This document shows, one piece after another, positions 1,885 to 48,300 of a stretch of 64,000 nt of DNA. The stretch is from Lytechinus pictus (taxonomy: Eukaryota). Under the pieces are notes generated by a model. The model was not told the origin of the DNA. It did no database searches and saw nothing but the letters and a program-made list of their open reading frames with translations. The DNA is taken from NCBI RefSeq assembly GCF_037042905.1, contig NC_087251.1, forward strand, positions 6,202,001-6,266,000, read 5' to 3'. The translations under genes and the position numbers were made by a program. Within the stretch, counting starts at the first letter, position 1, and every line of letters begins with the position of its first letter.

Positions 1885-4070
1885 TTGATTTACCTTGATT
1901 TACCTTGATGTTGGGCATAAAGTATAGAAGACTTATTTGCCCCTCTGCATCTAGACTTAGAACTTGTCCTCAGTTATAAACGTTACAATTTCACATGCAT
2001 GTGTGGGTTTGGACAATTTGTGAAAATTCTGTGTCTGGGTCGAAACGATTATACTTGGTTTTCCAGGCCTTCTCTTGATTTGATTTGAATGAATTTATAC
2101 TGCTACTGTTTACGACCTCAGAAGGTAGGTCATTCCATAGGTTGATTACTCGTTGCAAGAAATCCTGTTGCCTGAGTGTTGAATGTGCTCTTAACTTGAT
2201 TATTTTTCTAGAATGTCCTCTTGTCCGAGGTCGAGTGTCAAGTTTGAAGAAATTTGTACAGTCCGAATCATCTATGCCCTGAATAATCTTAAACGTTTGG
2301 ATCATATCCGCTCTATTTCTCCTATAGGATAACGTTGGTAGATTTAGTTTCTTCAGTCGTTCCATGTAGCTCAAGTTCTTCAGATGTGGAATTAGCTTGG
2401 TTGCTCTACGATGGATTTTTTCCAGTTTTATGATGTCTTTCTTGAGATAGGGGTGCCATACACTCCTGCAGCATTCTAAAGATGGTCGTATGATTGACTT
2501 GTAAAGTTGAACCAGACCTCTTTCATCCAAGTTTGAGAAAGTTCTCTTGATAAGTCCTAAGAGGCGGTTTGCTTTGGCACAAGCTTTGATCACATGTTTA
2601 GAAAATTGCAAATTGTTATCAAAAGTTACTCCCAGGTAGTTTTCCTCTGTCACTTTTGGAATTTCAGAAGTGTCATCTGGTACTAGTAGGTAGCTCATAC
2701 CTGGATTTTTTCTTCCAATAGACATTACTTTGCATTTCTTCTGGTTGAAAGTTAACTGCCAGTCTCCTGCCCACGACGAAAGGTTGGACAAATCATCTTG
2801 TAGGCTTACGTTATCATCTTCGTCACGGCGAGGTGCATACAGTTTTGTGTCATCTGCAAATAATTTGACTACAGAGTTCTTAGAAATCACATCTGGAAGA
2901 TCATTGATGAAGATAATATTAGAGGGCAGGGCCGATAACACTACCTTGAGGAATTCCACTGGTCACCTCACATTCCTTGGACAGTGCTCCATCTACTATC
3001 ACCCTTTGTTTGCGATCAGAGAGAAACGCTTTAATCCATGTCCATACTTTTCCTTGAATTCCATATCCTTGTACTTTTGTGAGGAGTCTAGTATGGGGAA
3101 CACTATCAAACGCTTTGCGGTAGTCCAGGTAAATGCAATCGACTATATCCTTTGCATCAAGGGCAGTACTCCAATCATTTGTGACTTCCAGTAGTTGGGT
3201 AGTACAAGATCTTCCTTTCCTGAACCCGTGTTGATGAGGCGTTAGTAGGTTATTGGATTCTAAGTGATCCAATATCTGATCCCTAACAATTGTTTCCATA
3301 ATCTTACAAACGACACTTGTAAGACTTACAGGTCGATAATTCTCTGGAACATTTTTCGGTCCCTTTTTGTGAATGGGCACCACGTTAGCAGAATGCCACA
3401 AGTCAGGGATCTGTCCTGTAATCATTGAGGTGATGAAAATATCTACTAATACTGGGGCTACCATCTCCTGTAATTCCTTTAAGATCCTAATATGAATTCC
3501 ATCAGGACCTGGAGATTTGTCTTGGTCCAGACGTCTTAGTATTTTAATTATAGCTGAACTGTCTATGTGGATATCAACTAAGGGATCCACGAAGCATCTG
3601 TTCTTGAACTGTGGAATTTCCAAAGTATTTTCAACAGTGAAAACTGAGCTGAAAAACTTATTAAAAACTTCTGATTTCTCTTCATTGCTTTCGTCATAAG
3701 ATCCCTCAGCATTTATCAAAGTAGGTATTCCAAACTTGGATTTTGTCTTGCTGTGTACATACCTCCAGAAACTCTTTGAGTTGTGCTTGATTTCAGATGA
3801 AAGTTTTTTTTCAAAGTCCCTTTTAGCACTGTTAATCTTTTTTGTTGCTTCGTTTCTCATGGTGGTATATATAGCTCTGGATTTGACCGTATTTCTTTTC
3901 TTGCGTCTGTCCCTCTGAAAAACATTCCATGCTTTATGTTTATCTTTAATTGATCTCTTCACTTCAGCATTCATCCATAGTGGTTTAGGTTTGCAATTTG
4001 TGGATACAAGTGGAACATATCTTTCAGTTAGATATGTCGATGTTGGCAATGTTTGGCTTATTTTCTCTTT
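1885..4070 (-). mobile_element. 5'-truncated CR1-clade LINE (RT domain), frameshifted
   Basis: ORFs 2919-4115 and 1991-2959 carry KSPGPDGI, NYRPVSLTS, QHGFRKGRSC, YLDYRKAFDSVPH, PQGSVIGP and LFADDTK. A 1-nt frameshift near 2920 splits PQGSVIGPAL/IIFINDLP. The 3' tail is a short ATCAAGGTAA tandem near 1886-1910. No endonuclease domain. Confidence 0.92.
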
Positions 4071-4988
4071 CTCTTTGGGACAAATGCTTGATTTTTTGAC
4101 ACTGCCAGTCTCCATTACAGCTATTCATCATATAACTTGGCTCTTAAGTAAATTTGATTCCTTGAATTATTTTTACTAAATTAAAAAATAGAGATTGAAA
4201 AATGACAATTTTCTTGCCATATTACTTTCCACCAATAGAGTGCGTACACAAAAATATGCAAAAAATTCAAGTTTTTGAGCTCTCTGGTGAACACAAAAAA
4301 TAATTCCCAAGTTAAAAATACATTGCAACTGTATATGGAAAGTAGTATTTTTGGTCACAAAAGTGATATTTTAATGATTTGTTAAAGTGTGTGCTGTGTA
4401 CAGCATTGACATACCCCACAGGCAGGATGGTTGCAGCGAGCAAGTGTGTTAGGGCCTAATTTAATGGACTGAATTATTTGCACCCATAAAGTGACCGCTA
4501 GTGGCTAATGTCACCAAACTTATAATCACACTGCCATTTATTATTCATAGCCCCTCACCAACCTCACCTCCCTACCCAGAGAGGAGGGGTGGGGGTGGCA
4601 TCACCCCCGGGAATGGGCTATTTATCAATTATTTTACAGTGTGATTTGCTGGTATGGGTTGGGTGAACTGAGCAACCACTTTTGTGTGCAAATAATTTAG
4701 TCCCCTAAAACCCAGGATTACCCCACCCCATCATGAAATCACAGCCGAAGTTTCCAGTCCCGTTAGTTTAAAACTCACTTGACAGACATCTTTGTATGTA
4801 AAGAATTAAAAGATGCAAAGGTACGGGTAATAGTACACTAAAAAGATATCAGATAAAAAAAAATAAATGCATGGTACTATCCAAGGTTATAGGCCTATAC
4901 AGTATGTGTGAAAGTTTTTATCAATAATAAGCCTATCAAATTTGACCTACAAATCATAAGATTTACAGTGGATTCCAGTAAACTTATT

Positions 4989-7821: not shown

Positions 7822-10800
7822 GTATACAATATGATTATGTTAAATGTACAGTGGATACATTTTTTCATCTAATTATGATCAAATCTTTGTTTCACCATAA
7901 TACTATTTAAGTGACCTGCTATTTCGCCAATTATGAATCTTCACTGATGTAATATGAGTTGCTTTACAAGTACCGCATACTTCCTTGTTGCATCTCTTTG
8001 AATTGGCTGATGAATACAAATGAATTTAAATCACACCATCCATATTGTTTTTCTGGGCCTCAAGTGTAAAAACTAACCGTCTTGATAACTCCTACTGCAC
8101 TGGTTATATTACTACCATTTCTCGAGCTACATTCATCTTGAGAATGTACATCAAATTCCCCTCACATACAAATGTGATTACTGCAGGTATGAGACCCACA
8201 GATACTTGCTTAGCACTCAAGCCCATGCACTATCCTTGGAAACAAGAGATGTACCAATGGAAAGTCAAGATATGGCCAAGGGATTTGAGATGGTAGAATC
8301 GGATACCAAAGGTATCGCCCCTGAAAGGAGAGTGATCCTGCACAAGGATCCTGCTTAGCACTGAAGCCCATGCACTATCCTTGGAAACAAGAGATCTAGA
8401 TGTACCAACGGAAAGTCAAGATATGGCCAAAGGATTTGAGATGGTAGAATCGGATACCAAAGGTATCGCCCCTGAAAGGAGAGTGATCCTGCACATGGAT
8501 CCTGCTTAGCACTGAAGCCCATGCACTATCCTTGGAAACAAGAGATCTAGATGTACCAACGGAAAGTCAAGATATGGCCAAAGGATTTGAGGTGGTAGAA
8601 TCGGATACCAAAGGTATCGCCCCTGAAAGGAGAGTGATCCTGCACAAGGATCCTGCTTAGCACTGAAGCCCATGCACTATCCTTGGAAACGAGATCTAGA
8701 TGTACCAACAGAAAGTCAAGATATGGCCAAAGGATTTGAGGTGGTAGAATCGGATACCAAAGGTATCGCCCCTGAAAGGAGAGTGATCCTGCACAAGGAT
8801 CCTGCTTAGCACTGAAGCCCATGCACTATCCTTGGAAACGAGATCTAGATGTACCAACAGAAAGTCAAGATATGGCCAAAGGATTTGAGGTGGTAGAATC
8901 GGATACCAAAGGTATCGCCCCTGAAAGGAGAGTGATCCTGCACAAGGATCCTGCTTAGCACTGAAGCCCATGCACTATCCTTGGAAACGAGATCTAGATG
9001 TACCAACGGAAAGTCAAGATATGGCCAAGGGATTTGAGGTGGTAGAATCGGATACCAAAGGTATCGCCCCTGAAAGGAGAGTGATCCTGCACAAGGATCC
9101 TGCTTAGCACTGAAGCCCATGCACTATCCTTGGAAACGAGATCTAGATGTACCAACGGAAAGTCAAGATATGGCCAAGGGATTTGAGGTGGTAGAATCGG
9201 ATACCAAAGGTATCGCCCCTGAAAGGAGAGTGATCCTGCACAAGGATCCTGCTTAGCACTGAAGCCCATGCACTATCCTTGAGAACGAGATCTAGATGTA
9301 CCAACGGAAAGTCAAGATATGGCCAAAGGATTTGAGGTGGTAGAATCGGATACCAAAGGTATCGCCCCTGAAAGGAGAGTGATCCTGCACAAGGATCCTG
9401 CTTAGCACTGAAGCCCATGCACTATCCTTGGAAACGAGATCTAGATGTACCAACGGAAAGTCAAGATATGGCCAAGGGATTTGAGGTGGTAGAATTGGAT
9501 ACCAAAGGTATCGCCCCGGAAAGGAGAGTGATCCTGCACAAGGATCCTGCTTAGCACTGAAGCCCATGCACTATCCTTGGAAACGAGATCTAGATGTACC
9601 AATAGAAAGTCAAGATATGGCCAAAGGATTTGAGGTGGTAGAATCGGATACCAAAGGTATCGCCCCGGAAAGGAGAGTGATCCTGCACAAGGAGGAAAAT
9701 CAAGAACATCGAATCATGATTACTATAATAAAATAAAACCCAAAGGCCAAAGCAGGAATCATGAAAATAAGAAATTGTGACTAAACATTTTACCACATAC
9801 ATGGACAGGAAGAAAAGAAGTGGAATTGAAGTGACCGATAGTTATTATGATTCATTTTATGTATTAGAAGCTCTTTTTCTGGAAGTGAGTGAGAGCACTT
9901 TATTGAATAGTTTATATTGGATTTAGTAGATAGGTCATAGTGATTCAGTTTGCTTTTTGCCTCCCAGGCACAGATGACGCCTAACAGATAATGACAAAGA
10001 AGTATATGGTCATAAAAATTTTATAATCAGGACAGACACTGAAGTACAGACAGCAAGGAATGGATTCTAGAGGATGTCTTTAATTGAAATACGTAAAGAC
10101 TAGTTAAAGGACAAGTCCACCCCAACAAAAAGTTGATTTGAATTAAAAAGAGAAAAATCCACCAAGAATAACACTGAAAATTTCATCAAAATCGGATGTA
10201 AAATAAGAAAGTTATGACATTTTAAAGTTTCGCTTAATTTCACAAAAGAGTTATATGCACATCCTGGTTCCCAGGACCAAAATCCAGTTAAAACCAATTA
10301 GAGCAAAACCAATTGAAACCAGTTGGCCAACTGGTTTCAATAGGGAAATTGGAACAACTGGTTCCAATTGAAACCAGTTGCCAACTGGTTCCAATTGAAA
10401 CCAGTTGCCAATTGGTTCCAGTTAAAACCAAGTGGGCAACTGGAACCAGTTGGTAATTGGTTTCATTGGTTCCAGTTGTTCCAATTTCCCTATTAAAACC
10501 AGTTGAATCCAATTGGAGGCAACTGGTTTCAATTGGTTCCAGTTGAAACCAATTGGAGGCAACTGGTTTCAACTGGAACCAGTTGAAACCAATTGGTTTC
10601 CAATTGGATCCAATTGGAACTTCCAGTTGGAATGAACTTAATTAGTTACAAATTAATTAGCATTTGCACTAACTATTGCCCCGACTATTGCTCATGCTAA
10701 CACAGAAGCAGTGTTATATGTCTATTAATTAATACCAATGTAAAGGGCATCGATAAAATACAGACTTTCATATGTATATATTTATATGGAAGATCTTCAA

Positions 10801-13800
10801 ATATATGTATTTTTATTTGATGTAATTTGGTAACAGTTAGTAGTGTGATAATTATGTTTTAATCTGTTGTAATTATAATCTATAACATTTATGAACATGG
10901 TTTTCACTGCTAAGTATTCTAAACACTTATCTGAAACAAGTGTGGTACTTTAAATTGTAAAGAATTAAATAGATACATTGTAAATGATGATGAATCTCAT
11001 AAAACATCAATCTGTGCACACTGGCAGATAATATGCAAATTAACTGGTTTCAATTGGATCCAGTTGGGTAACTGGAAAATTTCCAATTGGAAACCAATTG
11101 GAAATCATTTCCAGTTACCCAACTGGATCCAGTAAGGATTTCCAGTTACCCAACTGGTTCCAGTTTTATTTCCAGTTACCCAACTGGTTCCAATTAGAAT
11201 TCATTTCCAGTTACCCACCTTTCCAGTTAGAAGTCATCTCCAGTTACCCAATTGGTTCCAGTTAGGATTTCCACTTACCCAACTGGTTCAAGTTAGGATT
11301 TCCAGTTACCCAACTGGTTCCAGTTAGAAATCATTTCCAGTTGTAAGTCATTTCCAGTTACCCACCTTTCCAGTTAGGATTTCCAGTTACCCAACTGGTT
11401 CCAGTTAGGATTTCCAGTTGCCCAACTGGTTCCAGTTAGGATTTCCAGTTACCCAACTGGTTCCAGTTAGAAATCATTTCCAGTTGTAAGTCATTTCCAG
11501 TTACCCAACTGGTTCCAGTTAGGATTTCCAGTTACCCAACTGGTTCCAGTTAGGATTTCCAGTTGCCCAACTGGTTCCAGTTAGGATTTCCAGTTACCCA
11601 ACTGGTTCCAGTTAGAAATCATTTCCAGTTGTAAGTCATTTCCAGTTACCCAACTGGTTCCAGTTATGATTTCCATTTGCCCAACTGGTTTCATTTGGTT
11701 TCATCTGGGAATTGTTAAATTCCAGTTAAAACCAATTGAAACCAGTTGAAACCAATTGAAACCAGTTGGAAATCCAACTGGTTTCAATTGGATTTTGGTC
11801 CTGGGTTGGTACGCAAATGAGACTATGACGTCATCCACTCACTATTTCTTTTGTATTTTATTATATGAAATACGAAATATTCTAATTTTCTCATTGTCAA
11901 GTGATACAACAATTAATTCCTCCCTGAACATGTGGAATTAGCATTGTTTAATACTATATGGTTCGGTCAAGTTGGTCCTTATTGTCAAATCTATAAAAAA
12001 AATGAAATATTGTATAATTCAAACAATAAAAAACAAAAGAAATAGTGAGTGATGGACATCATCGACTGACTCACATAGTTGTGCATATCACTGTTTTGTG
12101 AAAAATAAGCGAAATTTTAAAATGTCATAACTTTCTTATTTTACATCCGATTTTGATGAAATTTTCAGCACTATGTTAGTTTGATTTTTCTCTATTTATT
12201 CAAGTCAGCATTTTCCTGGGGTGTACTTGACCTTTAATAGGTAATTCTGAAGTCGGTGATAGAATAATGAGTTTGAGGCTATTATATTGAAGAGAAAATA
12301 GCAGTATTAAAGTGATATGATTAGTCAGAGGAAGCTAGCATGTAAATAAAACAGTGGATAGACCTGTTAGGAAAATACCTGTGGTGAATTAGAAAGGAGT
12401 TACGTCTTTACTAGGGTTGCTCCTGGTAGCCTAAATTAGAAAGTGGTTGAGAGGCCCATCTGGAGTAGAATTAGTTGAAAAGGTAAGGTACATTGTTGGA
12501 ATAGAATTTAGATTGTACATTCAAACTAGGCCCGTTTCGGGTACACGTGTACACGTGTACACGCACGGTCAAGTCAGTGCACGTGTACTAAATTCCATCA
12601 CCGTGTACACGGTAGCATCTGCATAAAGCTTGCATGGGACTACAAAATCAGTGAACAAGCTCACAGCCTCACATTAAATCATAGTTCTCAGACACTGCAC
12701 ATATTCTAATTACTAATATGTCAATATATTTCAATTAATCTAGAGTGAGTTCACTTCCAAAATCGCCGATTTAATCCACGTACATTCTGGAGACTCAAGT
12801 TTTTGTACCACGAAATGGGTCTGCTCCGCCTCCGGTCTCGAAAGTGTTGCTCAATCACACTCATAGCCAATTTGAGAATCACCAATTGCAACAGCGATCA
12901 TTGCTACAACTTACGTGTTATACGCTCGTACACATGTGCTACAAGCCTACAAACAAACGCTCCTCAAATTGGCAACAAAATAATGAAAATCAATCGATAA
13001 CTTCAGTTACACTTAATTCTGCAGCGATCTGTGGGTGTCACGCGCGTAAAACATTCCCCATAGACTTGTGTGTTAAAATGGCACTTTTGAAAAATTCATA
13101 AAAAATAAATGTGAAATTAGAGGGTGGAATGTTTACTACCAATGGATAGGATATATATCTGACATTCCAAATCTGACCAGGAAAGGGTACCGTAGCCAGC
13201 TCATTTTAAAAATAAATCGCCATTTATAAAGATAACTATGAATCGATCGAATTCATCAACTGAAACAGTAAAATAGCCCTAATTATTCCGCCAGTCAAAA
13301 AATAGTTCCAAATTACTTATTTATCTTCCCAATTTGGGCGAAGTAAGTTCAGTAGTTACCATTTCTAGAATCAGTGTTAGATTTTGAATCACATTCATAC
13401 ATTTTTGTCAATCAGCAATATCAAATTGACAAAAATTCGAATGGGTTGGGTCGAACGAATATCTTTAGCCCTCCTGATGTAATTAGGCTCGTGGAACCTA
13501 TATTATGTGACTTATGTATTTTATTTTTTTGAATAGCTACTTTTCTATTCTTTTATATCTGTACACTCACACTAGCACAAAGAAATACATTGAAAATGCC
13601 TATTTTCTATGCAATGACCCATTTTAATGTGTTACCCATACATGTTATTTTCACTATTTATGGATGTATACAAATCCTACCTGCATATAGCCCAACAGTG
13701 AATGCAATGACAATATAGGTCCCTATCAATTGTAATATAAAAGTGTATGTAAATTCTGTGTAGATATCAGGATACCAGAACTGTCCCAAACATAATTACC

Positions 13801-13920
13801 AAATATACATGAGATTGGATGAGGAAACAATAAAAGAATACTAATTTAGTATATTTGCATTTGACCTATTCAAAATCTTCCTAGGGCTGTTGCCTCTCAG
13901 ATGTAAGAAGGAAGAGATAC

Positions 13921-13967
<47 letters not shown>

Positions 13968-16900
13968 AAAATAATTTTATAGATGGCATGGCTTAATAAA
14001 GGGGGGGGGGCTATACTAAGATTGCAGCACACAGCCACCCCCTCCCTCCCTAGTTGAGCACTATTAGATACCTTACCTTACTCTGTGCCCCTTTCTAAAT
14101 ACCTTCTTGAAGGCACCACTCTAGTTCTCTTTAGTAAAGTTCTCAAAGTTCTATCTCCTCTCTACATACCCCCTTCCTAAGAACAATTTTAACATGAGGA
14201 ATTTCTAAAGGTCTTTCTAATGCTAAGTAGGTGATGTACACTAACACAAAACAATGATAAATCAGAACATAAAGAGGCCTTGACTCTATACATTGACCAA
14301 TATACATACATTCCTAGGCTACACAGACCTACTAACTTTACCTGATGTAGCCCTGCTAGCCATTAAATCCATTTTTTTACACCACTTGATGACTAAACAT
14401 ATTGATATCAGTGAGAAATTGTTTGCTACTGAAGAGTTTGGCCAGGTATTCCATCCACTACTAGGGATTTCCCATATTACTTACAGGTGTCACGCGCGTA
14501 AAACATTCCCCATAGACTTGTGTGTTAAAATGGCACTTTTGAAAAATTCATAAAAAATAAATGTGAAATTAGAGGGTGGAATGTTTACTACCAATGGATA
14601 GGATATATATCTGACATTCCAAATCTGACCAGGAAAGGGTACCGTAGCCAGCTCATTTTAAAAATAAATCGCCATTTATAAAGATAACTATGAATCGATC
14701 GAATTCATCAACTGAAACAGTAAAATAGCCCTAATTATTCCGCCAGTCAAAAAATAGTTCCAAATTACTTATTTATCTTCCCAATTTGGGCGAAGTAAGT
14801 TCAGTAGTTACCATTTCTAGAATCAGTGTTAGATTTTGAATCACATTCATACATTTTTGTCAATCAGCAATATCAAATTGACAAAAATTCGAATGGGTTG
14901 GGTCGAACGAATATCTTTAGCCCTCCTGATGTAATTAGGCTCGTGGAACCTGTGCATGCACGTACGGTACAGTATACAAAATGCGCATCCAACGAGCGTC
15001 GGCGCTAGCAGGGCCCTGCACTGATTTTCTTTTGCATTCTTTATTAATTTAATGCGCTGCTAAGCTGAGTAAACTTTTAATTTGCACCAATTTTTGTGGA
15101 TTGATACTTCAAACTTCTCTGGTAAGCTTTAAAACCGTGACTTAGGCTATATAGACCCCCTTTTTAATGACATGTTGATGCAGGTCCGTGTCGACATGAA
15201 AACAACTCGCTCTCAGAGTGTTTACAACGTGTACACGTGTACACGACCGAAAAACACGCCGTGTACACGTGCATCAAAAATGGACTTTCAAAACGGGCCT
15301 AATTCAAACCTTGTTCCTATTTAGATAGAATATAGATTACCTAGGTATAGGTTACCTAGGTTTATTAGATGGAATATTTACTTGTACATTACAGGATAAC
15401 AGCAACTGTAGTCAAAATAAGAAATTATTCAAGTTCGAAGTGATACACAATGAATTGAACTCTAGGCCTTGTTTGTTGAAGAATAGTTAATTAAGTTATT
15501 TGTTTCTTTTGAACAATAAGACTGATAGATTTATTCTCTTCAATGTCTGATTAGGCAATAGTTACAATGGAAATGGATGAAATTGATAGTTTAACATCTT
15601 GATTAGATAGCAGTTTTGATCGTCTGACTTTTTATCAGACAATTAACCATGTCATTGCACTTTAGATTGCTAGCTACCTTATTTATGTAGAGGATGTGAT
15701 TGAGAGAGAATAGCCCCATGTACAGAGTAGTTGTAGGTTACAAGGGTAATTTGGTAAATTTGACTTGTTTGAGCAGTTTGAGCAGTTTTGTTGAGTTGAA
15801 CTGTAGTGTGTGAGATAATAAAGCAATATTGACTGGCCTCGGGACGATACAACTTATATTGCCCAAACTAGATTATAATCAACGTAGACAAGGGTGATAA
15901 TCAATTTAGTTAGGGCGATATATGTCCTTTCGCCCCCAGGCCAGTCAATATTGCTATTATTAACCAAATCAGACATCTAGAGCAAAAATTGTTAAAATTG
16001 ATATATTTTAGAGTTTAAGAATGGGAATCTATTTTGTCATGTTGAGCAGACTGGGCCTCTGAACTTTACTATTTTGACGTAATTGAAATGACACGTCCCT
16101 GGCCTAGGGACGCAGTATCCAGCGTTGTCTCAACTTGAGTAACATTGGGACGCATAGCACTGCGCGGTTCAAGTACGCGTACAAAAACGCGTTGAATACC
16201 CGGATGTTAGCTCTGCCTTACTGCCCGCTACATTTCCACGCATTTTCTCATTGACTTTCTTGAGCGGGCAATAAATTGGTTCTGTGGATAAGCAATTGGA
16301 AACTTATTGACCGACCATTTGACCACAGTTATAAGCAGGCAATGTATTGAAGTTGCCCTGCTCAGATGTCTGATATGGTTACCAGTAATAATTGTTTCAA
16401 TGTTGTGACTGAGTAGTTAACTCACCATTATTGTTGAAAGTGGAAGCCTGAACCTATGTGTGACAATGGAATTCTCATGTTGTAAAGGGAGGATGATTCT
16501 GATGCTCCTATATTTTAGTTCAGATGAGTGCAGCTTACCTTTTTAGTATTATTGTATAATGGTGGTATGAGGAGTGAGAAAACTCCATCCAACTTTCCAT
16601 CCAACTCTCTTTCTCTCTCTCTCATGCACACACACATTTCCTTTTCACTCCACCCTTTCCTACTTTCCTTTCTATCTTTTTTTCATCCTATTCCTCTTAA
16701 ATTCTTTCTTTCTATTTCTCATATTTTCCTTTTCTTTATTTCTTTATCCATATCTTTTTCTCATAAAGTCAAAAAGGGGCCTAAGCTTTCGATCCTAGCA
16801 GAATCTTCGTCGGAGGCAAAATGACAAACATATAAAGTGGAACAACCATAATATAGACCACAAACAAGCTACAGCAACACTAGAAACAAGGAGACAAAAG

Positions 16901-19900
16901 GGGCATTAGTGAGTAGAGAAGACCAATCAGGTTAGTGAAGGGGATGAAAGAAAAGGAGTAGGCAGACACAAAGGGAAGTTAGTGTAAGTAAGGCCAAGAG
17001 GGATTAAGATAATGAGGCAGGCAACATCAAACAGGATCTGGAACAAAACAGTGATAGAGGGATGAATAACTAGAGAATTAGTGAGAGGTGGGTCAAACAG
17101 GTTACAAAGAAAGGCTTAATAAACTGGTGCATAAGAGTGGGGGGGAAAAAAGAAGAAAAAGAATGGGGAACAACTGATAATGTGCAAAAGACATATAAGT
17201 TGTTGTTTCATCATGACTTTATTCAAGTTCAAAGACACTGATATACAATATATACATAAAGAGACCAGGTCCATCGTTTCCATTCCAAACAAATGGCAGG
17301 TCAGTACATGGATTACAAGACAAGTAATACGTATATATACCAATATAGATAATTATTTAGGGTAACATAAATGCAGGAAAATAATTAGTTAAAGCTGTCG
17401 TTGATATCACGTTGTAAAAAAAAAAAAAAACACTCAATCAGTCTTCTAAATCAGAGCTGGATGTGTAAATGGAATTAATCAACTACATTATAAGTTTTTG
17501 TGTATTAAAATTAATATAATTAGCTACTGACATCACAAATTTATGAAAGTAATATTAGTAAAGTACATTTGCCTTACGCAGAAAACATAGTTAAGAAAAT
17601 TATCTTGGGCCCTTGGGGATAGTTACGGGTCCAAGTGACGTACCACCCCCCAGGTTCGCTCTTTTCTTGCGTAGAATATCGAAAAAGAGGAGAGTATGGC
17701 GAGTTTAGAAAGGGTATGGAAAAATTCGGTTGGTCGGACTTTCGAGCTTGTTGTTCTGAGGAGTTTTTTAAGGCGGTGTTTATTATTCCGGTCTACTAGG
17801 CCCCTTGCCCCGATTTCTACGGCGTAGAATGACACCATGTACCCCTTGTCTTTGATATCCCTAACGATTGACTCGTACTTTGTGCTTTTCCTTTGGTGTG
17901 CATCTTCGATGTTGGTTTCAAATGGGATTGTTAATTCGGTGATAATTATCTCTTTCTGATCCTCCCGTAAAATTACTAAATCTGGGCGCAAAGTGGTTGT
18001 GAGTATGTGGGGTGGTATGGTGCCCCCGGCGATTGAATGCCCTTCTAAATCAGTATAAATATTCCCGTTAGTCAGATTTTCAAGAAATGTTTTGTGCATG
18101 AACCTCAAAATGTTATTATGACGCCACTCATATCTCTCAAGGAAGACTGGGCAGTTTGAGAGTATATGATGGAGGGTGCCTGTGGTACCAGGACAGAATA
18201 TACATTTGTCATTTAGGCGTTTACCCCAGGTATGCAAGTTTGTATAAGAGGGCAAAGAGTCAATACATGCATTAACAACAAAACTTAGAACTCGTTTTGG
18301 GAGATTATACATAATAGATTTCCAAGTTAGGTTTTCATTTTGCAGTAATAACAAGGAAGCAAATTTTCCCTGGACCAAGAGTGGCTCCACTCTATCTGAC
18401 CAATATTTAACTGTGTCTTCCTCTATTATCTTCTTAACGGTTCTCTTCACAGTATGCCATGGACTAGTCTCAACATTGATAGCATTTTCAACTCTACGAT
18501 GGGTTTCGTTACATTGTACGACAGTTGATTGTTTACGTGACCATTGTGACTCTCTTTCAATAGCAGAGTCAATCGCTTGATTAACTACTGAATCCGCTTT
18601 AACTCTCGATCTGCTAAAAGCGGTAGATTGGGATTGGCGGTAAATGTCGGATAGTCTCTGGATATTGAGACCTTGAGGTAAGTGGACCATAGCAATGTTG
18701 GCACCTCGAGAAGGGATACCTAACCAATTTTTCAGGTATTTATCGGTTAGCACGTCGAGTTTATCCAAATGGGTTTTTTGTAATGTATGGACTGTGAGCA
18801 AAAAGCGGATAGAATTGAGTACGTATCGTGAGTAAATGGCAACTTTAAACTCAGGACGTACGGATAATTCGTCTACTCTTTGTATTCTGTCAGCAATTTC
18901 CTTATGGACAAAATCATATACTTCAGCTGGTTTGCCATTGAAACAAATATTTGATCCCAAAAATTTGTGCGGCTTTTCTCTGATTGAACGAATACTTTCT
19001 GTGCCGATTGAGAACTTGATTTCTTTCGGGGTACCTCCACAAATTGACAGACTGCAACATTTGACAGGTTTTAATTTGAGTCCCATCGACGATGTGTATG
19101 AATGTAACTGATCAATTATCTTTTGATGTTGTACTTTATTATTGGTTATTAAATTAAAATCGTCGGCGTACGGGGTTGTTATGATCCTGGTACCATTCAG
19201 GTCATATCCCAGACTATCTTTCATTTGACCGAGGTATTCAATGAGGGGGTTAAAACATGACAAGAAGATGATAGGTGAAAGGGGATCTCCTTGGAACACA
19301 CCTTTTTTTAACCTAAATGTTTCAGATGACCATTTATTGCCTTTTACATTGCCTTGTAATCTACCATATAGATTACGAATGTACGCTGACAGATTATTAG
19401 GCACATGAAATCGACGTAGAGAATGGGAAATTAGCTCGTGAGATACACTACCAAAAGCATCAGCTAAGTCAAAGAACGTGACATGTACAGTGCGTTTCCT
19501 AGCTTTACTATGTGACATTATTTCATGTAAGACTTGATTGTGTTCCACACAACCATTGATACCATTAATAAATGCCTTCTGAACGTTATGGTCAATGTAA
19601 TTATTTGTAGTCAAGTAGTCAACTAAACGATTTGCTAGTAATTGATGGAAAACTTTACTTACACAAGAAGTTAACGAGATCATTCTGAAATTTTCTGGTA
19701 CATTGGTATCCCCGCCCTTGTGTATGAGCGTTACTTGGCAACGGGACCAACTCTCAGGGGGGTCGTGTGTTTCGAGAAGAAGTTGAGAAAATAGGGTGGC
19801 CAAAAAATGATGAACACACAGAGTATTTTTTAACAAACCATACATAAGGCCGTCTGGCCCGGGAGCAGAAGATGCCTTCTTGGCATTTAATACCAATTTC

Positions 19901-22900
19901 ACTTGCTTAGGAGTAACCAGGGTCAAATCGAAATCATGGTTTGATTCATTAACATCAATGTAGGGAAACCAAATACATCTATTAAAGTCAATATGCTCTG
20001 TTTGAGAATATTTTCGTGGGTAGTACTCATCCGCGATTTCTTTCGAGAAGGAAATGGTGGGCGTAGTTCTGTTAAAGTCTCCGTTACATACTTGTTTCGA
20101 AAAGTTCCAAAAGTCATTTCTGTATCTTTTTTCTTGGTAAGCTGCGGTCTTTTCGGCTTTCCTCTTGTCAGATCGCTTTTTCAGAAAAGATACTGCTTTA
20201 ACGGCCGATCGGAAATTTTTCCTGTCCTCGTCCGTGCCTTCTTTGCTGAATGCTTTTCGGCGAAGAAAGTTTTTTCTTTTCCGCGCATCGGCGAGGGTTT
20301 TTGGTTCATGCTCGACATATTCGTGGGAGTTGTTTTCTTGAACGAAGTCAGTTTGCGAAGCGAAGTAATCGAAGACGGTACGGCTGAAAGAATCGGCGGC
20401 CTTCTTTGGGGTCAGGATACGATGGTTTAAGTCCTCGTGAATGGGCGTTATCCGTTCTTTCAATTCATTGTTCTTTTGCTGCCATTCATTTCTCACGTAC
20501 TGCGGAATGATGAAGCGGGTAAAAGCTTCTGAATGGGCGAGGTGAACAATGAGTAGCCAAAAGCAGAGATGCATTATACCGTGGGAACCCATTGGCTTAC
20601 GATTGGTGATCACGTGGTCAGTGGGTGGCGCCAACTTTAATAGCGGCTGAAAAGCCAGCGGATTGTAGACGATCGGCTAGTGGGGAAGGTCCCCGATTCA
20701 ACGCCTTGGACGCACGTTATTTACGTTACAGTATTCGGATGAGAAATGCAAAATAATATGACATCGGGTCCTCCAATAACGGCTGATAATATTTTAATAT
20801 CAACGACTGCTAGAAATACTGAGTCACTCACCAAAACGATGATTACATTTACAGTGATGGTGGACGCGGCCAAATCCGGAATTTTAAGCAAAATTTGCAG
20901 CGGTGAAAAAACCTTTTCCGAGATTGCCGTTGCGCCCTCTTAAAAAAAAAAAGTATATATGATAAAGCATTAAACAAACTAAGAGAAGAAGGTAAGTGTA
21001 AATATGTATCTATAAGTGATATGTATATAAATATATCAACAACAAAAAAATGTATATGAAAAAATATATAAATATATACACATATGGTGTAACTGATATG
21101 GTAATCCGCTAGGTGTGACGGGAAAAAACATAGGACTATATAGCAGGAAAGAAAAAAAAAAAAAAAAAAAAACCTGTATATGTGAAAAAGAGGAAGCAAA
21201 TTGCCTAAAAAGGTAAAAGCAAATATAGAAGAGAGGGGGTGTATTATGAAGAAACCATAGTATACATGTAAATAAGCAAATGTGGTAAATCTAAAAGAGG
21301 TGAGTGGAGAAAAAACAAATATATATATATATATATAATAATTATTATATCGCCTGAATAAGGAAGGAAAAATTGGAGCTGAGCTTGTATGAGATATGGG
21401 AGGAAAGTAGAGTAAGAAACTATAATGTAACTATTCAAAAGAGCTGAGGGGAAAAATTATATGTATATATAAATTGAAAGTGGATAGGAAAGAAAAATCA
21501 GTCGTCTTTTTCTCAACAGCTTTTTGTTTTCCTCACTCCCTCTATTTAGGGTACAAATTCCACATCATAAATTCACATCCTAATTTGCCACATTCAGTGG
21601 CAGCGGTGGGATTTATTCCTATCTTTGTATCTTTTCTTTACTCTCTTAACCCCTATTGGCCACAATATCAATTAAGGTTAAATTTGGCATGTAAATGAAT
21701 CCTATCAGTCAGATATTGAAGAAAATTCAATGAAATCTATGTATGATGTTGAAAAATTATTACACTATTTCAGCCTAAAAATTCAACTGGTGTGAAAAAA
21801 TGGGGGGTGTCAACTTCCAAGCAGTGCTTGATGTAACTTACATCTAGCACTCTTCTTCCTAAAAAAAATCCTCCCAATTTATGATGTGAAATTCATACCC
21901 TAAATAGTTATGCCCTCTTTATTTCACTCTGTTTTCTGTTTATTTTCACAGACATGTGATGAGAAGCAGATTCTCCATCTTTTTGATAGTTCCAAGAAAC
22001 AGAAGACACACACACTTCATGTTCATATAAGAGGTCAAGGGTCATTGTCTTTTCAGGTCCATCAACAGACAACTTGCAGGTATTATATCTTGATATAGGT
22101 TATAGGTCTGCTTGACTTGGTTCATGTATATCACAGACCTCCAGATTCTTCTATGGCCGTGTTTATGCTTCCACTTTTTAGGCCAGAATCAGCGTTTCCA
22201 TACGTGATTAGTCCAAAACACGGTTGCGTCCATGCTTACTTTCATTTAAACAATGTTTCAAAACGCCAATCGTAAACTCACAAAAAGGTGCGTTTGTAAA
22301 CGTCTTTTGACCAGAATCAGGCTTTCTGGGGAAGTATAAACAGAACCACGATCGTAAACGTGTTTAAATGACGTCATTTGGTACATGCTTCCGGTGAGAT
22401 GCAAATACGGTCGCATTGCTCCATGGTCACATGTTACCTCCGCGTAATAACAACACTCGGAAAAAACAATTTCGAAAAAAGGCGCGCCCAATTTGACCTC
22501 GCTTTCCTGCTCAACGAAAATTACGATGCGAAGCCAGCTGGAGATCGTGATTTCGCCTCTGAAAAGTTAAGCATAAACAGCACTCCCAGAACCACGTTTA
22601 CGATTGGCGTTTTGAATCAACGTTTGAAGACGCTGATTCTGTCCTTGCAATGGAAGCATAAACACACCCTTAAATGCACCATATGTTGTTTTTAGGGGGT
22701 TTTATGGGGGGTATTTGACAATTTTATTTCTGCATAAGAGACGCAAGTTTTTTATGCCCACCTTTGTAATTAAGAGAATTCCATCTTGATATGAGACAGT
22801 TTTTGTCTAAGAGAAGGAAAAATATACAAAGTTTTAGAAGATTTTTTTTTGTAGTAAAAGGAAAAATTATTAATTTTGTTTTGTGAACACTGTCAACAGT

Positions 22901-39373: not shown

Positions 39374-42300
39374 GGAAAAGCGGCGCCTATAGTCTCACTC
39401 TGCTATGCAGGTGAGACAAAAACACTGAAAAATGAGTGGATGGACTATGATAAAAGTAAAAAATGTGTAACCTGGCTTTCATAAACTCTAATGAATTATA
39501 TATCACATGAAAGAGAAAAGTATAGTCTTTGTTTTCCATTTGGTAGCAAATTGTTATTGGTCACGCATGAATGATTGTATTTCAAATCAGTCTGATAATG
39601 CATATTTTCATACCTTTTGTGATCATTGAAGTGTAACTCGCAATGCTTCGATGATCATGACTTTATTACTTTTTCTGAGATGATATGCTCTCATTTCATA
39701 TAAAATTCAAATCCTTTTCACTCACTTTATTCATTTTGACAGGAAATGAAATATCAACAAGTGGAATGCCTCTGGCAGTCTCGCCTGCATTACACGATTT
39801 GATATACCAGCAGTGCTGACATTGAAAACAGCTATTAAATAATTACTCATAAAAGAAAACACTCATAAGATAATAAAATACTATGTGCATTTACCCAACA
39901 TGACCTTTGAACATGATCATGTGACCTCAGACATGTGCAAAACAACTCGATTACTGGTACCCTTATGTTTACTTTAAATGAACTACATGTGTAGATCCAT
40001 AAACTTTCTAAGTTGTGATGCCAATTCAACAAATACCACCAACATGGCCAAAGTTCATTGACCCTAAATGACCTTTGATTTTGGTCAAGTGACCTGGAAC
40101 AAGCACAAGATATTCAGGGATACATGGTTACTCTTATGTCCCAAGTTTCCATGAACTAGATTTATAAACTTTTAAATTTATGACAATTCCACAAATACCC
40201 TCAACATTTTCAAAGTTCGTTGACCCTATGACATTTGATTTTGGTCATGTGACCTGAAACACACACAAAATATTCAGGGATACATAATTGCTCTTATGTC
40301 TAAGTTTTATCAACTAGATCCATAAAATTTCAAAGTTATGATGACGATTCCACAAATACCCCCAACATGGTCAAAGTTCGTTGACCCTAAAGGACCTTTG
40401 ACCTTGGTCATGTGACCTGAAACTCAGGCCGGATGTTCAGTAATACTTGATAACCTTTCTGTCTAAGTTTCATGACTAGGTCCATATAATTTCTAAGTTA
40501 TGATGATATTTCAAAGACTTAACCTTGGTTAAGATTTCAATGTTGAAGCCGCCGCCGTCGGAAAAGCGGCGCCTATAGTCTGTCTCTGCTATGCAGGCGA
40601 GACAAAAATGAATCGAATTACACCCCTGTACAAATGTCAATGGGACAACAGCAGACAGGTATCAATTCGTTTTAAAATTGTTTATGAAATATGTAATACC
40701 GACTAAAATATTAAGACCTGTATATCAAATGAAAGCATATCATCTCATCTCTCAGGGGAAAAAAAGGAAATAAACCATGACCAATGAAGCGTTGCACACT
40801 TTGCTTCAATAATTACAGCAAAGGTCTGAAAATATACATTTTTGCATATACCAATTCAGAATCATTCATGCATTACTGATCACTATTTGGAAGTAGTTGC
40901 AAAACAAAGGCCATTCTTTCTTTTCCATTTTTATATTCAGTTTGACAGGAAATGAAATATGAAAAATTAATTTAATTACACCCATTTACAAAAGTCAATG
41001 AGGCAACAGCAGTTGGACATCAATTTTTTTTAAATCATTAACAAACTCTGTAAAACCGACTGAAATATTAAGAATTGTATACCAAATGAAAGCATATCAT
41101 CTCATCTCTTGGAAAAATAGAAAATAAGTCATTATCAATGAAGCATTTTGTGCTATGCTTCAATAATCACAGCAAGGTCTGAAAGAATGCAAATTGGATT
41201 TCATAATTCATTATCATTCATGCATGACCGATGACGATTTTCAACTAGTGGAGGTGCAAAACAATGGTTACACTTTCCTCTTTCATATGATATAAATTTA
41301 TTATATTTCATGATGGCCAACCTAGGAATTTTTGGGTTCCAACATAGTTCATATTCTCATTTTGCATTGCTGTATGTAGTGTACATTGTAGACACTGTAA
41401 ATCCATTGTAGATAGTATTTATAAATGCACTCTGTACCAAGTACAATTTACCTTATTCATATACTAACAAGGCACACTGTAAGCATTAAAATATTCTAGG
41501 GTATTGCAATACATGGATATATTTGTATGACAACAAAAAAATTCTCTACATGTAGGCCTACATGGCTACATGCCCGGGGGGGGGGGGGGGGGGCACTCAG
41601 TATATAATGCATAGTGGGTATGTGCCACGGGGGGGACCCCCATTTTTACACTCAAATTTCCGTTCCAACGCATAGCATTTGTGTCTTATTGAGAAAAAGA
41701 ACAAAGAAAGCCGCTCCTAAGCATAGCATATTCTTCTTATCATGAAAAAAGAAGAAAGAAATCCGCTCCAAAGCTTCACATATTTTCTGTAACGCCGTTC
41801 CGGCCACATTGATCTGCTACAAAAATGAGCCGCAGTTTTGGTGAAAAGCGGCCGCAGAGCGCTGTCCGACTATCGCCTATGCGCTAGCGCACCCGGCGCC
41901 TGTGCCGCCATGCTAGTTGCATGCATGTATGCCCGTTCCATAGGGACGCATACGCACTCACACACAGGCGACCCATTCCAAGGACCCCCTTTTTCACAAA
42001 CATTTGTAGTTCCGAAGCCCGTTCCGAGGACCCCCTTTTTTACAATAAGCCCGCTCCAAGGCCCCGGTTTTTTGCCTCGCCCGCAGCACATACCTACTAC
42101 TTTTGAATTTGGATACATCATGACTGTCAAAAAATATAGTGCTCTGATCTGAGCCTGAGAAGAAAGGGAAAATTCATTTTAAAATAAATCAAAAGCCTTT
42201 GCATAGCCCCCCCCCCCCCCCCCCCCCCCGGGGGGCTACATGCAAAGGGTTTTGTTTAATACCAGCTTAAAATTTGTAGAGGATTTTGTGGTCAATCATT

Positions 42301-45300
42301 CTATGGCCTGTTTACTGCACTGGTGGCTATTCAAGCAGCAAATCTCAAATGGTCTGTCATGACCCCCCCCCCCCTTCCCCCTCCACTTGAAAAGGGTGGC
42401 TTTACAAATCTCCATAATGATACATTGTGTTTTAACATACTGTACATTCAGATAAGCTGCTCCTCAAGGCAAACCCAATAAATGATAAACATGAGCTGAC
42501 TAAATAAATGATAAGTGACTTAAAATTGGATTTAAAATCGGATCAATACATCATGAATTTTAAACAGTGTTTTGCCTCAATGTTACGGTATACCTTGTAA
42601 AGCATGTCAGTAAATAGCACTATAACAATGTGGAGGTCCACTCCCCTATACATGTACATGTAGCTTTTCTTAAAGGCCACCGCACACCTTAAAACCCAAC
42701 TGGTCTGCGACTGAGTGAGGGAAAATGTTAAGTCACAGCCCTTGTCAGACAGAAGAGTCGCCTTTAAATACTGACGCGTACCTGATATGCAACATGCACA
42801 CGCAGTACTAAGCATCAATATCTCTGTTGCTATGGCAAAAAGCAAAAAGCACATGCGTGAGTTGCAGACCAGCATAGTCAGATTGCAAGGTGTGTGGTGT
42901 CGAGGCTTATTACTACCTTGCGATTCATCTCCCTTTACTCAGTCGCAGACCAGTCGGGTCGTAAGATGTGCGGTGGCCTTAAAATCCTTTTAAATCCTTT
43001 CTTTGATACAAAACACCAAATTAATCCTTTTTAGTGTGTGTGTATTTCTAAATATTTACAAGTGCTTTCTGGTTATCCGTCCTCATACTTCTAATTGTTT
43101 CTCAATCTTGTTTATCTAAAATTACAAATGATAATATAATAGTCATGATAGAGACAACTTAATGAATGAGGATTGTGAAATCATAATCATCATTATAAAA
43201 AAATAATAATTTGAGAATTATCATTATCAATCATTACTACCAAATCATAATACCATAGAAAATAGAATGACAGTACAAAACATGTATATACCTACCACAG
43301 GACACTCACTACCATATATGGTTACAGAGAGAATATGCAAATGGTATTCACAACTGTTCCTCAATTTCATATCCTTACCTAAAGGGAATCCTACTTGAGC
43401 CTTGCGTAGAAGCTGCATAATCTCCGTTTCTTTGGTTGTATGGATTTCAACAAAGTTGGGTACTTTGACTTTCCTATGAATATCTAAGAATAAATAAGTA
43501 AATATATGATATATACAATCAAACTTTTTTCTTTCTTTTTCTTTTCATTCGAGCAATTTCTTAATAATGCATACTGAAGCATGATAGCTGTTAAATGTGA
43601 GGAAAGACAGTTTGAAAGGTGTAGGAGTTGTGATGCACTGTACTGGGGATTGCAATTTTTGAATAATTCTTGTCTATTCATCAGGTTATATTAATCACTC
43701 TGTTGAATTGTGATTGAGCCTGCAATCCTTTTAATACAATCCAGATTATTAATCAGACAAGAGATAGAGAGCTCAGCATTATTTTGTGAACAAAGTCAAT
43801 ATGAGGCATTAAAAAAGCAAAACACACCAATAGGTGAAACATTTTTTTTGTTAAGGTGACACAATCTGTGCATCAATCAAATTTGTTTATGTGGTTACAA
43901 AAAATTATCCAGATTAATGACAACAAATTCATGGCAAAATAATTAATGAAAACAATACAATGTCATTAGGTCAGTGAAATACTTGAAGCATAAATCGGAT
44001 TGATTTGTCTCATCATTTCTAAATGCAATGAAGAAAGTTGTTGCACCTGGCTTTCAAAAAACCATATCCTCGTAATAAGATCGTAAAAATTATGAGCACT
44101 TATCTCTCATTATCAAGTTTGAGAATGGTAGTTGCAGACCATTTGGATTGTAAGGTGCATGATGGGTTTGGCCATGGACCTAGGCACAACAAAATTGTCT
44201 GGTGTCTTGAATATCAAGACTCTCTCCTTTCAGTAATGATATACTTACCAGGGTTACTTTGGAGGGAATCTAGTAGGACTTGATAGCTAATATTACGATC
44301 CATCAGGTTCTTGACGGCACTTAGAGGATCTAAGACCACTACATCAGGATTAACCTTGATGTACATCTGAAAATAACAAAATGTCATAGTCAAGAATACA
44401 TTTTTGAAATTCATATTTTTGTAATTTAAAATATGCTTTAAGGGCAGTTAAGGCACTTTGAAACAAGCCAACAGCCAGACTGAGTCCCTCCCACCCATAC
44501 CTTCATGAGTTTCCTGAAGTACATGTACATCCCTATTATGGTTACACAACATCTACTACGGCGACAATTGCTCCGGGCTTTATTTCATCTAAGATAAAGG
44601 GTAGGGTTAGGATAGGCTATATAGTGTTAAATCCGGGGTTGAAGTTGGTCATTCCATAAATGTGTGGAATTTGCAGCGGAGCAATTATCGCCAGATCAAA
44701 TGTCATGGAACCCCCTATTATATGTACACCATGTTTGATTTCACATTTCATTTGGATCCTAAGTCTCCTTTCATCTTCAGTGGAAGAGACAAAAAGAAAA
44801 AAGAATTATCTGTCATTCAATCACACAGTGAAATAAACAGACATGTAGCTTTGCAGTTTGTTCTTCCAAGGAATTGGAGATGCTACAAAATTCATAATGC
44901 ATTAAAATGAATACAAAATATCACACTGTTCGTACTTGTCAAGTTTGACAAAGCTATTGCATTTCCTTTTCTCTTTTACATGTAAAATAACTTTGTGCAA
45001 AACAAGTTCATGTAACAATTCAATTTTATGATATGGGAATATGTAAAGTTTGAGAGATCTCCTTCTAAGCAGTATAACAGTATGAAAGGGGGATGTAGAC
45101 TCACTCTCCAAAACAACTTTATTTCCTTATATTTATTTTCTGCTTTTATAAGTTTTTCAACAATTCAAAGGGCAAGCTCACCAAGAGTTGAAATTCATTT
45201 GAAAGAATCAAAAGAAAGAAATACAAGCAAAACCGTGAAGTTTCACCTGAAATAAATTGGATGAAAAATGACATAAATACAGCATTTGTTTCAAATACCA

Positions 45301-48300
45301 GTATTTGAATAACAAAGATCTATCCATCATTAAAATGGGCTTATCATTTTAAAAGCCCATTTTTTCTTATCATTTTTATAAATATTCAAATTTTCTGCTG
45401 GGAAAAAGGAAAAAACATTGCATGGCTCTTTAAAATTGTGCATTAAAAGCACAATGCATTCAGCTTGGAAACCTGGCTCCTGAGTTGGCATCAACAAGTC
45501 ATTGGACATTCAAACTTCTAGTAGTCATGAATGTGTATAAAATCATCTATATTACAGGCAGGTCTATAATTCACCAGCCAGACAGGTCTTTCCCAGGAAA
45601 ATTACTAGGTTATTGATAACTATTGGATTTTTGCAATTTATATCAGAATCAACCATAAATCAAAATGTCATTGTTTTATGTCTCTCTTTTACTGTACAGG
45701 TATGATAAACTCACAAGCCTGTATTCTGAAGTCTGATTAACCTCTAGAGGCCATGGTCTAACTCTGTGCCATTATGGGAAACATTGTATTAACATTGTAA
45801 TTTTATATTTCTTATGCTCATTATGTTGTTTAACCATGCTATAATGATGAAGAAAACTGATTCATTGTACCCAGAGAGTTATGAATGACCCAAGTGACAG
45901 ATTAGATTATACAAATCAAACCTGTGATATTGGAGATTTGGGTCTCAATTGGCTATCCATAGTTAAATCACAACTTTAGACCAGAGTTTAAATTAAACCA
46001 AAGTTTTGAATACAGGCCCATAGACTATCCAGTAACATTTATCTTTACAAGTAAACGCAAGTTAAAGCAACCTAGGATGCAACCCTCTACAGCCCAGGGT
46101 TGTGTTCCCAAACCTTTTCTTTTCAAGGGCTAACACATCAGTGTTCCATCAGTGTTACAAAGGCCATATCAACAACCATCTGTCAGCACATGTGGTATGC
46201 AATTGCCACTAAAACAATGTCCATTCATGAAAGTGTAGGGACCCTATCATCCTCCTATACTAAACCTTACGAGCTATCATTAATTCATCCTCTAATAGTC
46301 TGGATCAGCTAAGTGTGTACCCATTGCTTGGTAAGAGTGCAGAATGGAAATACATATATATCCGGATTATTATCATGTTAAAAAAACGTGCGCAGTGTCA
46401 CAGTCTTTACAATTTGAAATTCCTGTTCATGAATTTCAAGATGAGAACAAATGCTGCTTATGCGGACCAAGTCCTATCAGCGGCACTCAATTAGTCTGTA
46501 CTATTCTGGTACTCAACCTTTCATGAATAGAAATAGTCTGCACTAAGTCTGCTCCATGAACGTATGAAAGGGGTAATATACAACCTAGTATCTGTTGAAC
46601 ATTCCTCTGTACCTGCAGCATGTGCATACATGGTGGTCATCCAGTCGACCTGAAAACAATCACTCACAATCACTAATAGTCTGGACTTGCAGACCCTAAT
46701 GTTAATCTGCATCATATCTCATCTCCCAAATAACAAATGAACAACTTCAACAACATGTAAGTTCCAAAAAAGTGTACACTGAGATATATATATATATATA
46801 TAGTGTAATCCAAACTGTGTGAGAAACAATCCCTACTACAACACTTAAAAAAAAAAGGTTTTAGAAAATGAGAAGTAGACATACCTGTGGCTGTAGCCGA
46901 ATATTCCTTATTTCAGATACCTTTGTTTCATATGTAAAATTTTCCTTAACCCAGTATATAGATGGGGTTAAATTGCAAGTTAGCTGCCTTCACCTAACTT
47001 ACAGGGTTATAGCTTGGTCCACTTTCTTTTCTCACAGTGGGCACACACACACTACCGATTTGAGTGTGCAAAAATAGCAGGGTTAGCCAAGCAATTGCCA
47101 TGTTACTTTTAAGTGTGAAAGTCCAGGATTAAGAGTCGCTATGAGAAATGAGTTCCAGCCAAGCGAAGGACGGTGCTCCATGTTTGATTTTAGCACATAT
47201 AACTATTCAGGAATAAACATTTCATACAGTGTACATGTAGCTAAATCTATTTGCGAAAGAAATGAAAACTATCACTTTACTAAAAATTATTGAAGTTTGA
47301 GATTCATATCAGAGATAAAAAGGGCAGGAAACATATTTAAAACATCCCAACTAAGATGATCTTTGAAGGTTTCAGTGGTAGAGAGAATAATGGAGGTTTT
47401 CACGGTAAACACCATGTATGTAGTCCTGAACAGGACTGTTTGTCATTCTTTCTTGATTGTATGTTAGCCCCGGGGGGGGCACTCGACCAAAAAAGTGGTA
47501 GGGGTGTGCCGCGGGCGAGGCAAAAAACGGGGGCCTTGGAGCGGGCTTATTGTAAAAAGGAGGGTCCTCGGAACGGGCTTCGGAACTACAAATGTTTGTG
47601 AAAACGGGGGTCCTCGGAACGGATCTCCGTATCTCTGTGAGTGCGTATACATCCCTATGGAACGGGCAATCGTGCATGACGCAGCTAGCGCGGCCTCTGC
47701 CGGTGCGCTCGCGCTTAGGCGATGGTCGAAAAGCGCTCTACGGCCGCTTATCAATGCGACCGGAACGGCGTAACGAAAAATATGCGAAGCTTTGGAGCGG
47801 ATTTCTTTCTTCTTTTTTCTCGATAAGAAGGAAATGCTATGCCTTGGAGCGGCTTTCTTTGTTCTTTTTCTCAAAAAGACAGAAATGCTATGCCTTGGAA
47901 CGGAAATTTGAGTGTAAAAATGGGGGTCCCCTCCGCGGCACATACCCACTATGCATTATATACTGAGTGCCCCCCCCCCGGGATGTTAGCTCTGAAAAGA
48001 ACTGTTGACGATATTTCGACCAGCATGTTCTGGTTGTCATCAGGAATGATGATCCACATGAAAACATCCTTACTACCAAACATGATTTTGAAAATCTGTC
48101 ACCAACATGATTAAAACCTACATGTACTGTATGATTATTCAGTAAAACCAATATACACAAAATGAAGTTATCAAATTATACATTTTACAAACAATCATAA
48201 GAGTTACGCTAAGAAATCTATGTTTGTTCATAGATGTACATGAAGCTGAATAACTTTAGAGCAAGACTTTGTTAGCCTTTTTAATACCTTACCTAATATA

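Follow-up and report, generated by a model that had tools for sequence, protein, structure and literature searches.

The window analysed here is a 64,000-nt stretch of the Lytechinus pictus genome (G000:C7:6202001-6266000, contig NC_087251.1; one genome, 812-Mb assembly), in which a nested pair of retrotransposons occupies 16753-21515 on the minus strand. The inner member, a full-length retrotransposon without long terminal repeats (non-LTR) that encodes a reverse transcriptase (RT) and a restriction-like endonuclease (RLE), lies inside the 3' untranslated region (UTR) of an autonomous kind of Penelope-like element, here present as a 5'-truncated copy, and the arrangement very probably arose through two target-primed insertions that were recent and independent of each other. 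At either end of the unit the GC skew reverses, confirming the change in strand composition described in an earlier note on this DNA. The nested insertion itself is ordinary, and the new architecture proposed in that note falls away. The lasting point of the analysis is not the nesting but the start of the inner element's protein, a hydrophobic leader that resembles a signal peptide.

The outer Penelope-like copy and its target-site duplication

The outer copy is split in two. Its first part (20951-21505, minus strand) holds the final 8 nt of an open reading frame (ORF; stop codon at 21500-21498) and the proximal 3' UTR, and the distal 3' UTR, or pseudo-LTR, occupies 16763-17196 (minus strand) and stops without a tail at the short 3' end common in the family. 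Genome-wide searches with each end of this envelope, in which the 40 best of 1345 and of 601 first-look candidates were scored, found it empty and contiguous, with a joined match of at least 800 nt, at 48 distinct places (53 locus rows); empty envelopes of the kind envisaged in the earlier note, with 17198 joined to 20941, are thus common. All 58 of the 58 junction rows from outside the window read TATATACTT/ATATG straight through, with no insert. The same empty joint, from 17196 to 20951, is also present in public reads and contigs (three of four runs in one set, four of four in another), including DNA runs from three studies of a related organism.

The 5' end of the envelope is not the end of the family. 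Other copies extend upstream by variable lengths into a 909-aa ORF, which in two of them (L104 and L105) encodes an RT, a CX4CxxC linker and a GIY-YIG endonuclease, and whose stop codon lies 8 nt inside the window unit. The ORF matches RVT_1 (E 1e-8) and, slightly below the Pfam cut-off, GIY-YIG (E 0.001; 19.2-19.6 versus 22.6 bits). Since the copies that extend upstream reach this ORF, we conclude that the envelope (21505-20951 plus 17196-16763) represents an autonomous Penelope-like element of the Neptune/Nematis type in 5'-truncated form, with a unit of ~4.2 kb and a 3' UTR of ~980 nt. In outline, the earlier suggestion of a HERO element inserted co-oriented into a Penelope-like element was right; what it took for a non-autonomous element of ~1 kb, however, is the 3' end of this ~4.2-kb family. 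Nor does the envelope behave as a non-autonomous Penelope-like element or retrozyme, a non-coding unit with fixed ends or tandem monomers, the 5' ends being variable truncations of a coding element. The window copy differs from its nearest relatives by 4-5 substitutions per ~980 nt.

The family has the features of endonuclease-bearing (EN+) Penelope-like elements: a single ORF with RT and C-terminal GIY-YIG, partial tandems with pseudo-LTRs, 5' truncation, inverted 5' copies, an optional tail, and a pseudo-LTR that carries a hammerhead motif. Of 24 anchored near-full copies (25 were fetched; L139 was not anchored and was left out), 15 have a hammerhead-bearing pseudo-LTR upstream, variable in extent; inverted 5' pieces were flagged in 9/34 copies, and a tail of ~62 nt was present on 11/45 of the 3' ends. 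Near-full copies share the architecture given for the Neptune/Nematis type in the accessible part of PMC8557442, including the CX2-5CxxC linker of those clades, here CX4CxxC in translation; compared with that description, the tail is longer (~62 versus 30-40 nt) and the 3' UTR is long. Poseidon of Anolis, as far as the available text of PMC11167929 goes, resembles the family in having two 3' ends, short and tailed, that fit two internal RT starts, and in its AT-rich targets, whereas its hammerhead overlaps the ORF start and ~500 nt of 5' UTR intervene here. Separately, read and contig depth in the bin at the hammerhead end (16763-16825) exceeded that of the neighbouring UTR bin 3-30 times, and many loose ends fell at 16815-16825 in RNA runs, which suggests that hammerhead-only stubs are numerous.

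An 11-mer, TCTTTTTCTCA, occupies 16753-16763 and 21505-21515, flanking 16764-21504 on both sides as had been reported. Four occurrences fall in the window, where 0.19 would be expected; the remaining two, at 41690 and 47863, lie within the arms of an unrelated inverted repeat. Junction repeats of at least 7 nt (7-14 nt) were found in 12 of 19 simple truncated Penelope copies, compared with 7.6% of mismatched pairs. Since TCTTTTTCTCA falls exactly on both Penelope junctions, which were mapped independently, and since junction repeats are typical of the family, the upstream (21505-21515) and downstream (16753-16763) copies on the minus strand are the target-site duplication (TSD) of the window Penelope copy, 9-11 nt long given that the junction-adjacent base at each end also fits the element, and not the low-complexity coincidence that had been considered. 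No empty-site joint from ~16763 to ~21505 was present among the joints listed for seven public runs. One contig from a related organism starts aligning exactly at 21505 after 63 unaligned letters, which is compatible with an empty site, those letters not having been seen; among the indexed data sets containing the locus sequence, none is recorded as RNA.

The inner element and the probable course of the nesting

The RT-RLE element spans 17201-20939 on the minus strand (5' end +/-1 nt) and finishes with AATAAA (17223-17218) followed by GATGAAACAACA. Its frame is unbroken from 20676 to 17623 and matches RVT_1 (E 5e-31), bearing out the earlier report of an intact element. From the first ATG, a 989-aa ORF (17623-20592, minus strand) encodes a hydrophobic leader, a helical basic N-terminal domain without a zinc finger, RT, a CCHC knuckle and the restriction-like endonuclease; the presence of the last three in a single ORF is what defines RLE elements. 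Although the earlier note saw no convincing TSD around this part, a short ACTT duplication is present (17197-17200, minus strand, with its partner at 20954-20951), although its two leading bases could equally be part of the RLE tail. At the 5' junction lies an extra T9AA (20940-20950, minus strand; ~11 nt), which neither the empty Penelope copies nor the other RLE copies have and which is likely an untemplated addition or slippage. The window copy differs from its nearest relatives at 1/1445 and 2/749 bases, and it alone is unbroken among the five near-full copies examined, the other four carrying stops or frameshifts.

Three further observations were made on this family. About 100 nt of the 3' UTR (window 17485 region) are missing from the youngest copies and present in older ones. 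A conserved, stem-rich and possibly pseudoknotted block of the 3' UTR (17260-17310, minus strand) is perhaps an RT recognition signal. One near-identical copy (L114, G000:C19, about 4395775-4399007) has its 5' half inverted, like the products of L1 twin priming.

The two element families, their ends, both duplications and the uniqueness of the junction in the assembly are direct observations; the order of events, the Penelope element first and the RLE element second through target-primed reverse transcription (TPRT) at an AT-rich site, is what we infer, as an allele of this exact locus in which the Penelope copy stands alone was not seen. In a first step, the Penelope RT/GIY-YIG protein would have begun cDNA synthesis where the family commonly does, immediately beyond the hammerhead; the cDNA of ~990 nt would have halted 8 nt short of the ORF end and left the 9-11-nt TSD. 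In a second step, the RLE element, which shows no fixed target, would have made its nick in the AT-rich UTR at TATATACTT/ATATG and integrated through TPRT, with duplication of ACTT. Several points, beside the missing intermediate allele, weigh against this account. The UTR makes up ~0.07-0.16% of the genome, so that for this one pair a chance hit has a probability of a few percent over 24 or more copies and is not very likely; the composite of 4.7 kb is within the insertion length of the Penelope family (unit of ~4.2 kb plus pseudo-LTR); and the genome searches cover the 40 best candidates in an assembly of one genome.

The same length consideration applies to a single-step origin, in which the RLE element entered a transcribed Penelope donor first, after which a single cDNA covering all 4.7 kb was made at the present site by the Penelope machinery. 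A single TSD encloses everything, the length is feasible and both parts are about equally young. However, the searches turned up neither a donor nor a sister composite: the assembly contains one exact match to the 28-nt RLE/Penelope junction, and there is no second full-length match among the scored candidates. In addition, none of the other RLE 5' ends examined is preceded by Penelope sequence, and the AATAAA of the RLE element would likely terminate transcripts before the hammerhead end. We regard co-mobilisation as unlikely. The idea that the whole 4.7 kb moves as one chimeric unit is not supported, the RLE flanks being unrelated elsewhere, empty envelopes common and the junction unique, an outcome that had been set down beforehand as speaking against it.

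Targeting of this Penelope family by the RLE family was also considered, since certain RLE elements are described as targeting transposons (PMC4640811, available part), the insertion is co-oriented here, and a second association exists on C1 (L075/L161). Among 24 distinct RLE 3' flanks, however, one is sense Penelope (the window), one is antisense, and 22 have no Penelope match, and the 58 sampled Penelope junction rows are all empty at the insertion site. In the C1 case the Penelope copy is antisense and has cut short the 3' end of an RLE copy that is older (~88%), which means that there the Penelope element inserted into the RLE element. A preference of this kind, which the earlier note had raised, is very improbable. 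The L161 locus (G000:C1:248000-256500) itself shows the reciprocal nesting, with a full-length, tailed Penelope element antisense at the 3' end of the older RLE copy.

The trailer downstream of the RLE element carries the hammerhead motif that the earlier note had placed with its predicted cut about 19 nt from the unit end. The motif, a minimal type-I hammerhead of the Penelope family, lies at 16768-16825 (minus strand), with the predicted cut at 16783/16782, 19 nt from 16764. It consists of helix I GCCU/AGGC, a core CCGACGA, a 6-bp helix II, GAAA and a palindromic AGCU, so that the structural hallmarks (helices, bulge, G10.1-C11.1, palindrome) are all present. With the metazoan minimal hammerheads of Penelope-like elements, in the portion of PMC4209133 available, it shares the short helix I, long helix II, unpaired base between 9 and 10.1, G10.1-C11.1 pair and palindromic 15.2-16.2, and it differs from them in the core (U4C, U7C). 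CCGACGA is found in 73 of 74 family motif matches (some places counted twice), the canonical CUGANGA core not being matched. The folding energy does not stand above that of shuffles (z -0.4 to +0.2), an Rfam scan of the window gave no hammerhead at E<=1, and unconstrained dimer folding did not produce the hammerhead dimer. The Poseidon ribozyme, according to the accessible part of PMC11167929, requires protein and is dispensable for insertion in vitro.

A hammerhead ~400 nt downstream and in sense raises the question of whether the RLE element has taken over the trailer to form its 3' end and is now mobile as a chimera ending in a ribozyme, a reading to which the unbroken state of the window copy, the only such copy among the five, would lend some support. 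Its closest relatives nonetheless end at the normal tail, the three nearest copies (L062-L064) finishing without a Penelope trailer, and no pile of RNA ends was listed in two RNA runs (~6% of each read; reads not assignable to the window locus). Metazoan minimal hammerheads are moreover weak as monomers (PMC4209133, in the part seen), and we consider such a chimera extremely improbable. A split-core C(U/C)GANGA hammerhead was not found in the RLE 3' UTR or 5' region. On the two-step account, the hammerhead and the 11-mer are both parts of the Penelope insertion and would serve no function in the RLE element.

An R2-like protein with a hydrophobic leader

The best sequence and fold matches of the RLE protein are R2 (E 2e-37; template-modelling score 0.71; structures 9nl2, 9nl3, 9dou and 8gh6). 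Like R2-group elements, it has a single ORF with RT, CCHC knuckle and restriction-like endonuclease; unlike them, it has no N-terminal zinc finger and a hydrophobic leader in its place. A search with the RT region returned 172 relatives, of which 120 were listed. In an RT tree, which leaves out L155 and L160 and contains no labelled HERO sequence, the 21 rows of the lineage group together as a single clade (97/99), to which two ELTVPWE-type elements and one U2-flanked element of the genome do not belong, with long-branch warnings. The two ELTVPWE-type elements were taken for HERO on the strength of that motif, a presumed HERO mark, and the HERO label for the inner element could not be confirmed. 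A trait of the HERO clade, the lack of a fixed target, is evident from the 24 different 3' flanks, as in many HERO families (PMC4640811, available part). Elsewhere in the genome, L150 (G000:C8:33308000-33314500) is an intact RLE element with three zinc fingers. It is followed by sequence resembling U2 small nuclear RNA and is Utopia-like.

The predicted leader comprises residues 1-23 (20524-20592, minus strand). In the lineage alignment the N-terminal zinc finger is absent, and a hydrophobic leader is followed by a conserved (R/K)F..P....W motif; the leader sequence is not conserved, but its character is kept across proteins that are ~37-60% identical. A simple signal-peptide rule (our own heuristic, not SignalP, calling for an N-terminal Leu-rich h-region and then a small-x-small site) was passed by 43 of 58 lineage proteins, compared with 22 of 689 internal-Met controls. 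The 58 come from 77 profile hits, 19 having been dropped (18 without the anchor motif and P0021, mis-anchored); the remaining 44 of 121 proteins gave no N-terminal profile hit. Since the nearest Met upstream of the motif is typically 12-28 residues away from it, whereas one has to go a median of 184 residues downstream to reach the next, the leader is the likely start of translation and of the RLE protein. A leader of this kind is also seen in three sister families in the genome: the rule is passed by L144/L145 and by L146/L147/L149, while L143 has a visibly similar leader that fails it and L148 begins inside the ORF. Among more distant ORFs, several of them incomplete at the start, 0/11 passed.

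Two leader subtypes were distinguished, one with a small-x-small site and a short one, LL(S/T)FLRF, which may be uncleaved or simply an amphipathic helix. The h-regions contain 33% Leu and 11.5% Phe, and in four RLE leaders checked T makes up 28-39% of the coding DNA and peaks at codon position 2. As a caution, the start of the Penelope ORF is also hydrophobic, but it is Phe-rich and comes from DNA with 55% T. AlphaFold models residues 4-21 as a low-confidence helix (pLDDT 55-61), followed by a domain with pLDDT above 90, and residues 1-200 fall in unnamed clusters only of the ESM Atlas. We conclude that the signal-like leader is a real sequence pattern, for which targeting to the endoplasmic reticulum (ER) is predicted.

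Neighbouring repeats and the possible meaning of the leader

The window contains several other repeats. At 41584-47979, 230-nt terminal inverted repeats enclose ~5.9 kb and include the other two 11-mer copies; this is probably a DNA transposon. A 149-bp tandem array (8207-9742), a palindrome-rich inverted-repeat element (10144-12198) and a perfect 300-nt direct repeat with 1452 nt between its copies (13034-14785) were also seen, together with a frameshifted remnant of a CR1-like RT, labelled by eye (1991-4124, minus strand). Outside the window, L158 (G000:C21:9273500-9280500) has a 1399-aa frame with a retroviral-type protease motif at its start and an apurinic/apyrimidinic endonuclease (APE)-type long interspersed nuclear element (LINE) at its end, and LTR-element-like coding DNA resumes downstream; it is likely a LINE nested in frame within an LTR element.

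As for the inner element, its hydrophobic leader would be predicted to recruit the signal recognition particle (SRP) and so to bring the translating RNA to the ER membrane. An export signal is not expected of an RT that binds its own RNA in the cytosol and acts in the nucleus. The available part of PMC3945221 offers a precedent in Ty1, whose RNA is translated with SRP at the ER, although Ty1 belongs to the LTR elements and it is Gag that is routed in this way. The 2A-like signal sequences described in the accessible part of PMC4981915 are N-terminal signals that give dual localisation; they belong to sea-urchin host NLR proteins, whereas no NPGP motif occurs in the first 200 aa of the 121 proteins here. 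A literature search found no description of a signal peptide in RLE non-LTR retrotransposons, and Repbase Reports, most subscription journals and bioRxiv supplements, which lay outside it, may describe the lineage.

We put forward tentatively, as quite possible, that the inner element is a member of a widespread, apparently undescribed R2-like lineage without N-terminal zinc fingers, whose RT-endonuclease starts with a functional signal peptide or signal anchor; SRP might then be used to bring the RNA under translation to the ER or to the nuclear envelope, or else to export the protein. If this is true, the lineage would have a compact 989-aa R2-like enzyme without zinc fingers and would add a new step to the LINE life cycle, either ER-anchored assembly of the ribonucleoprotein or cell-to-cell transfer.

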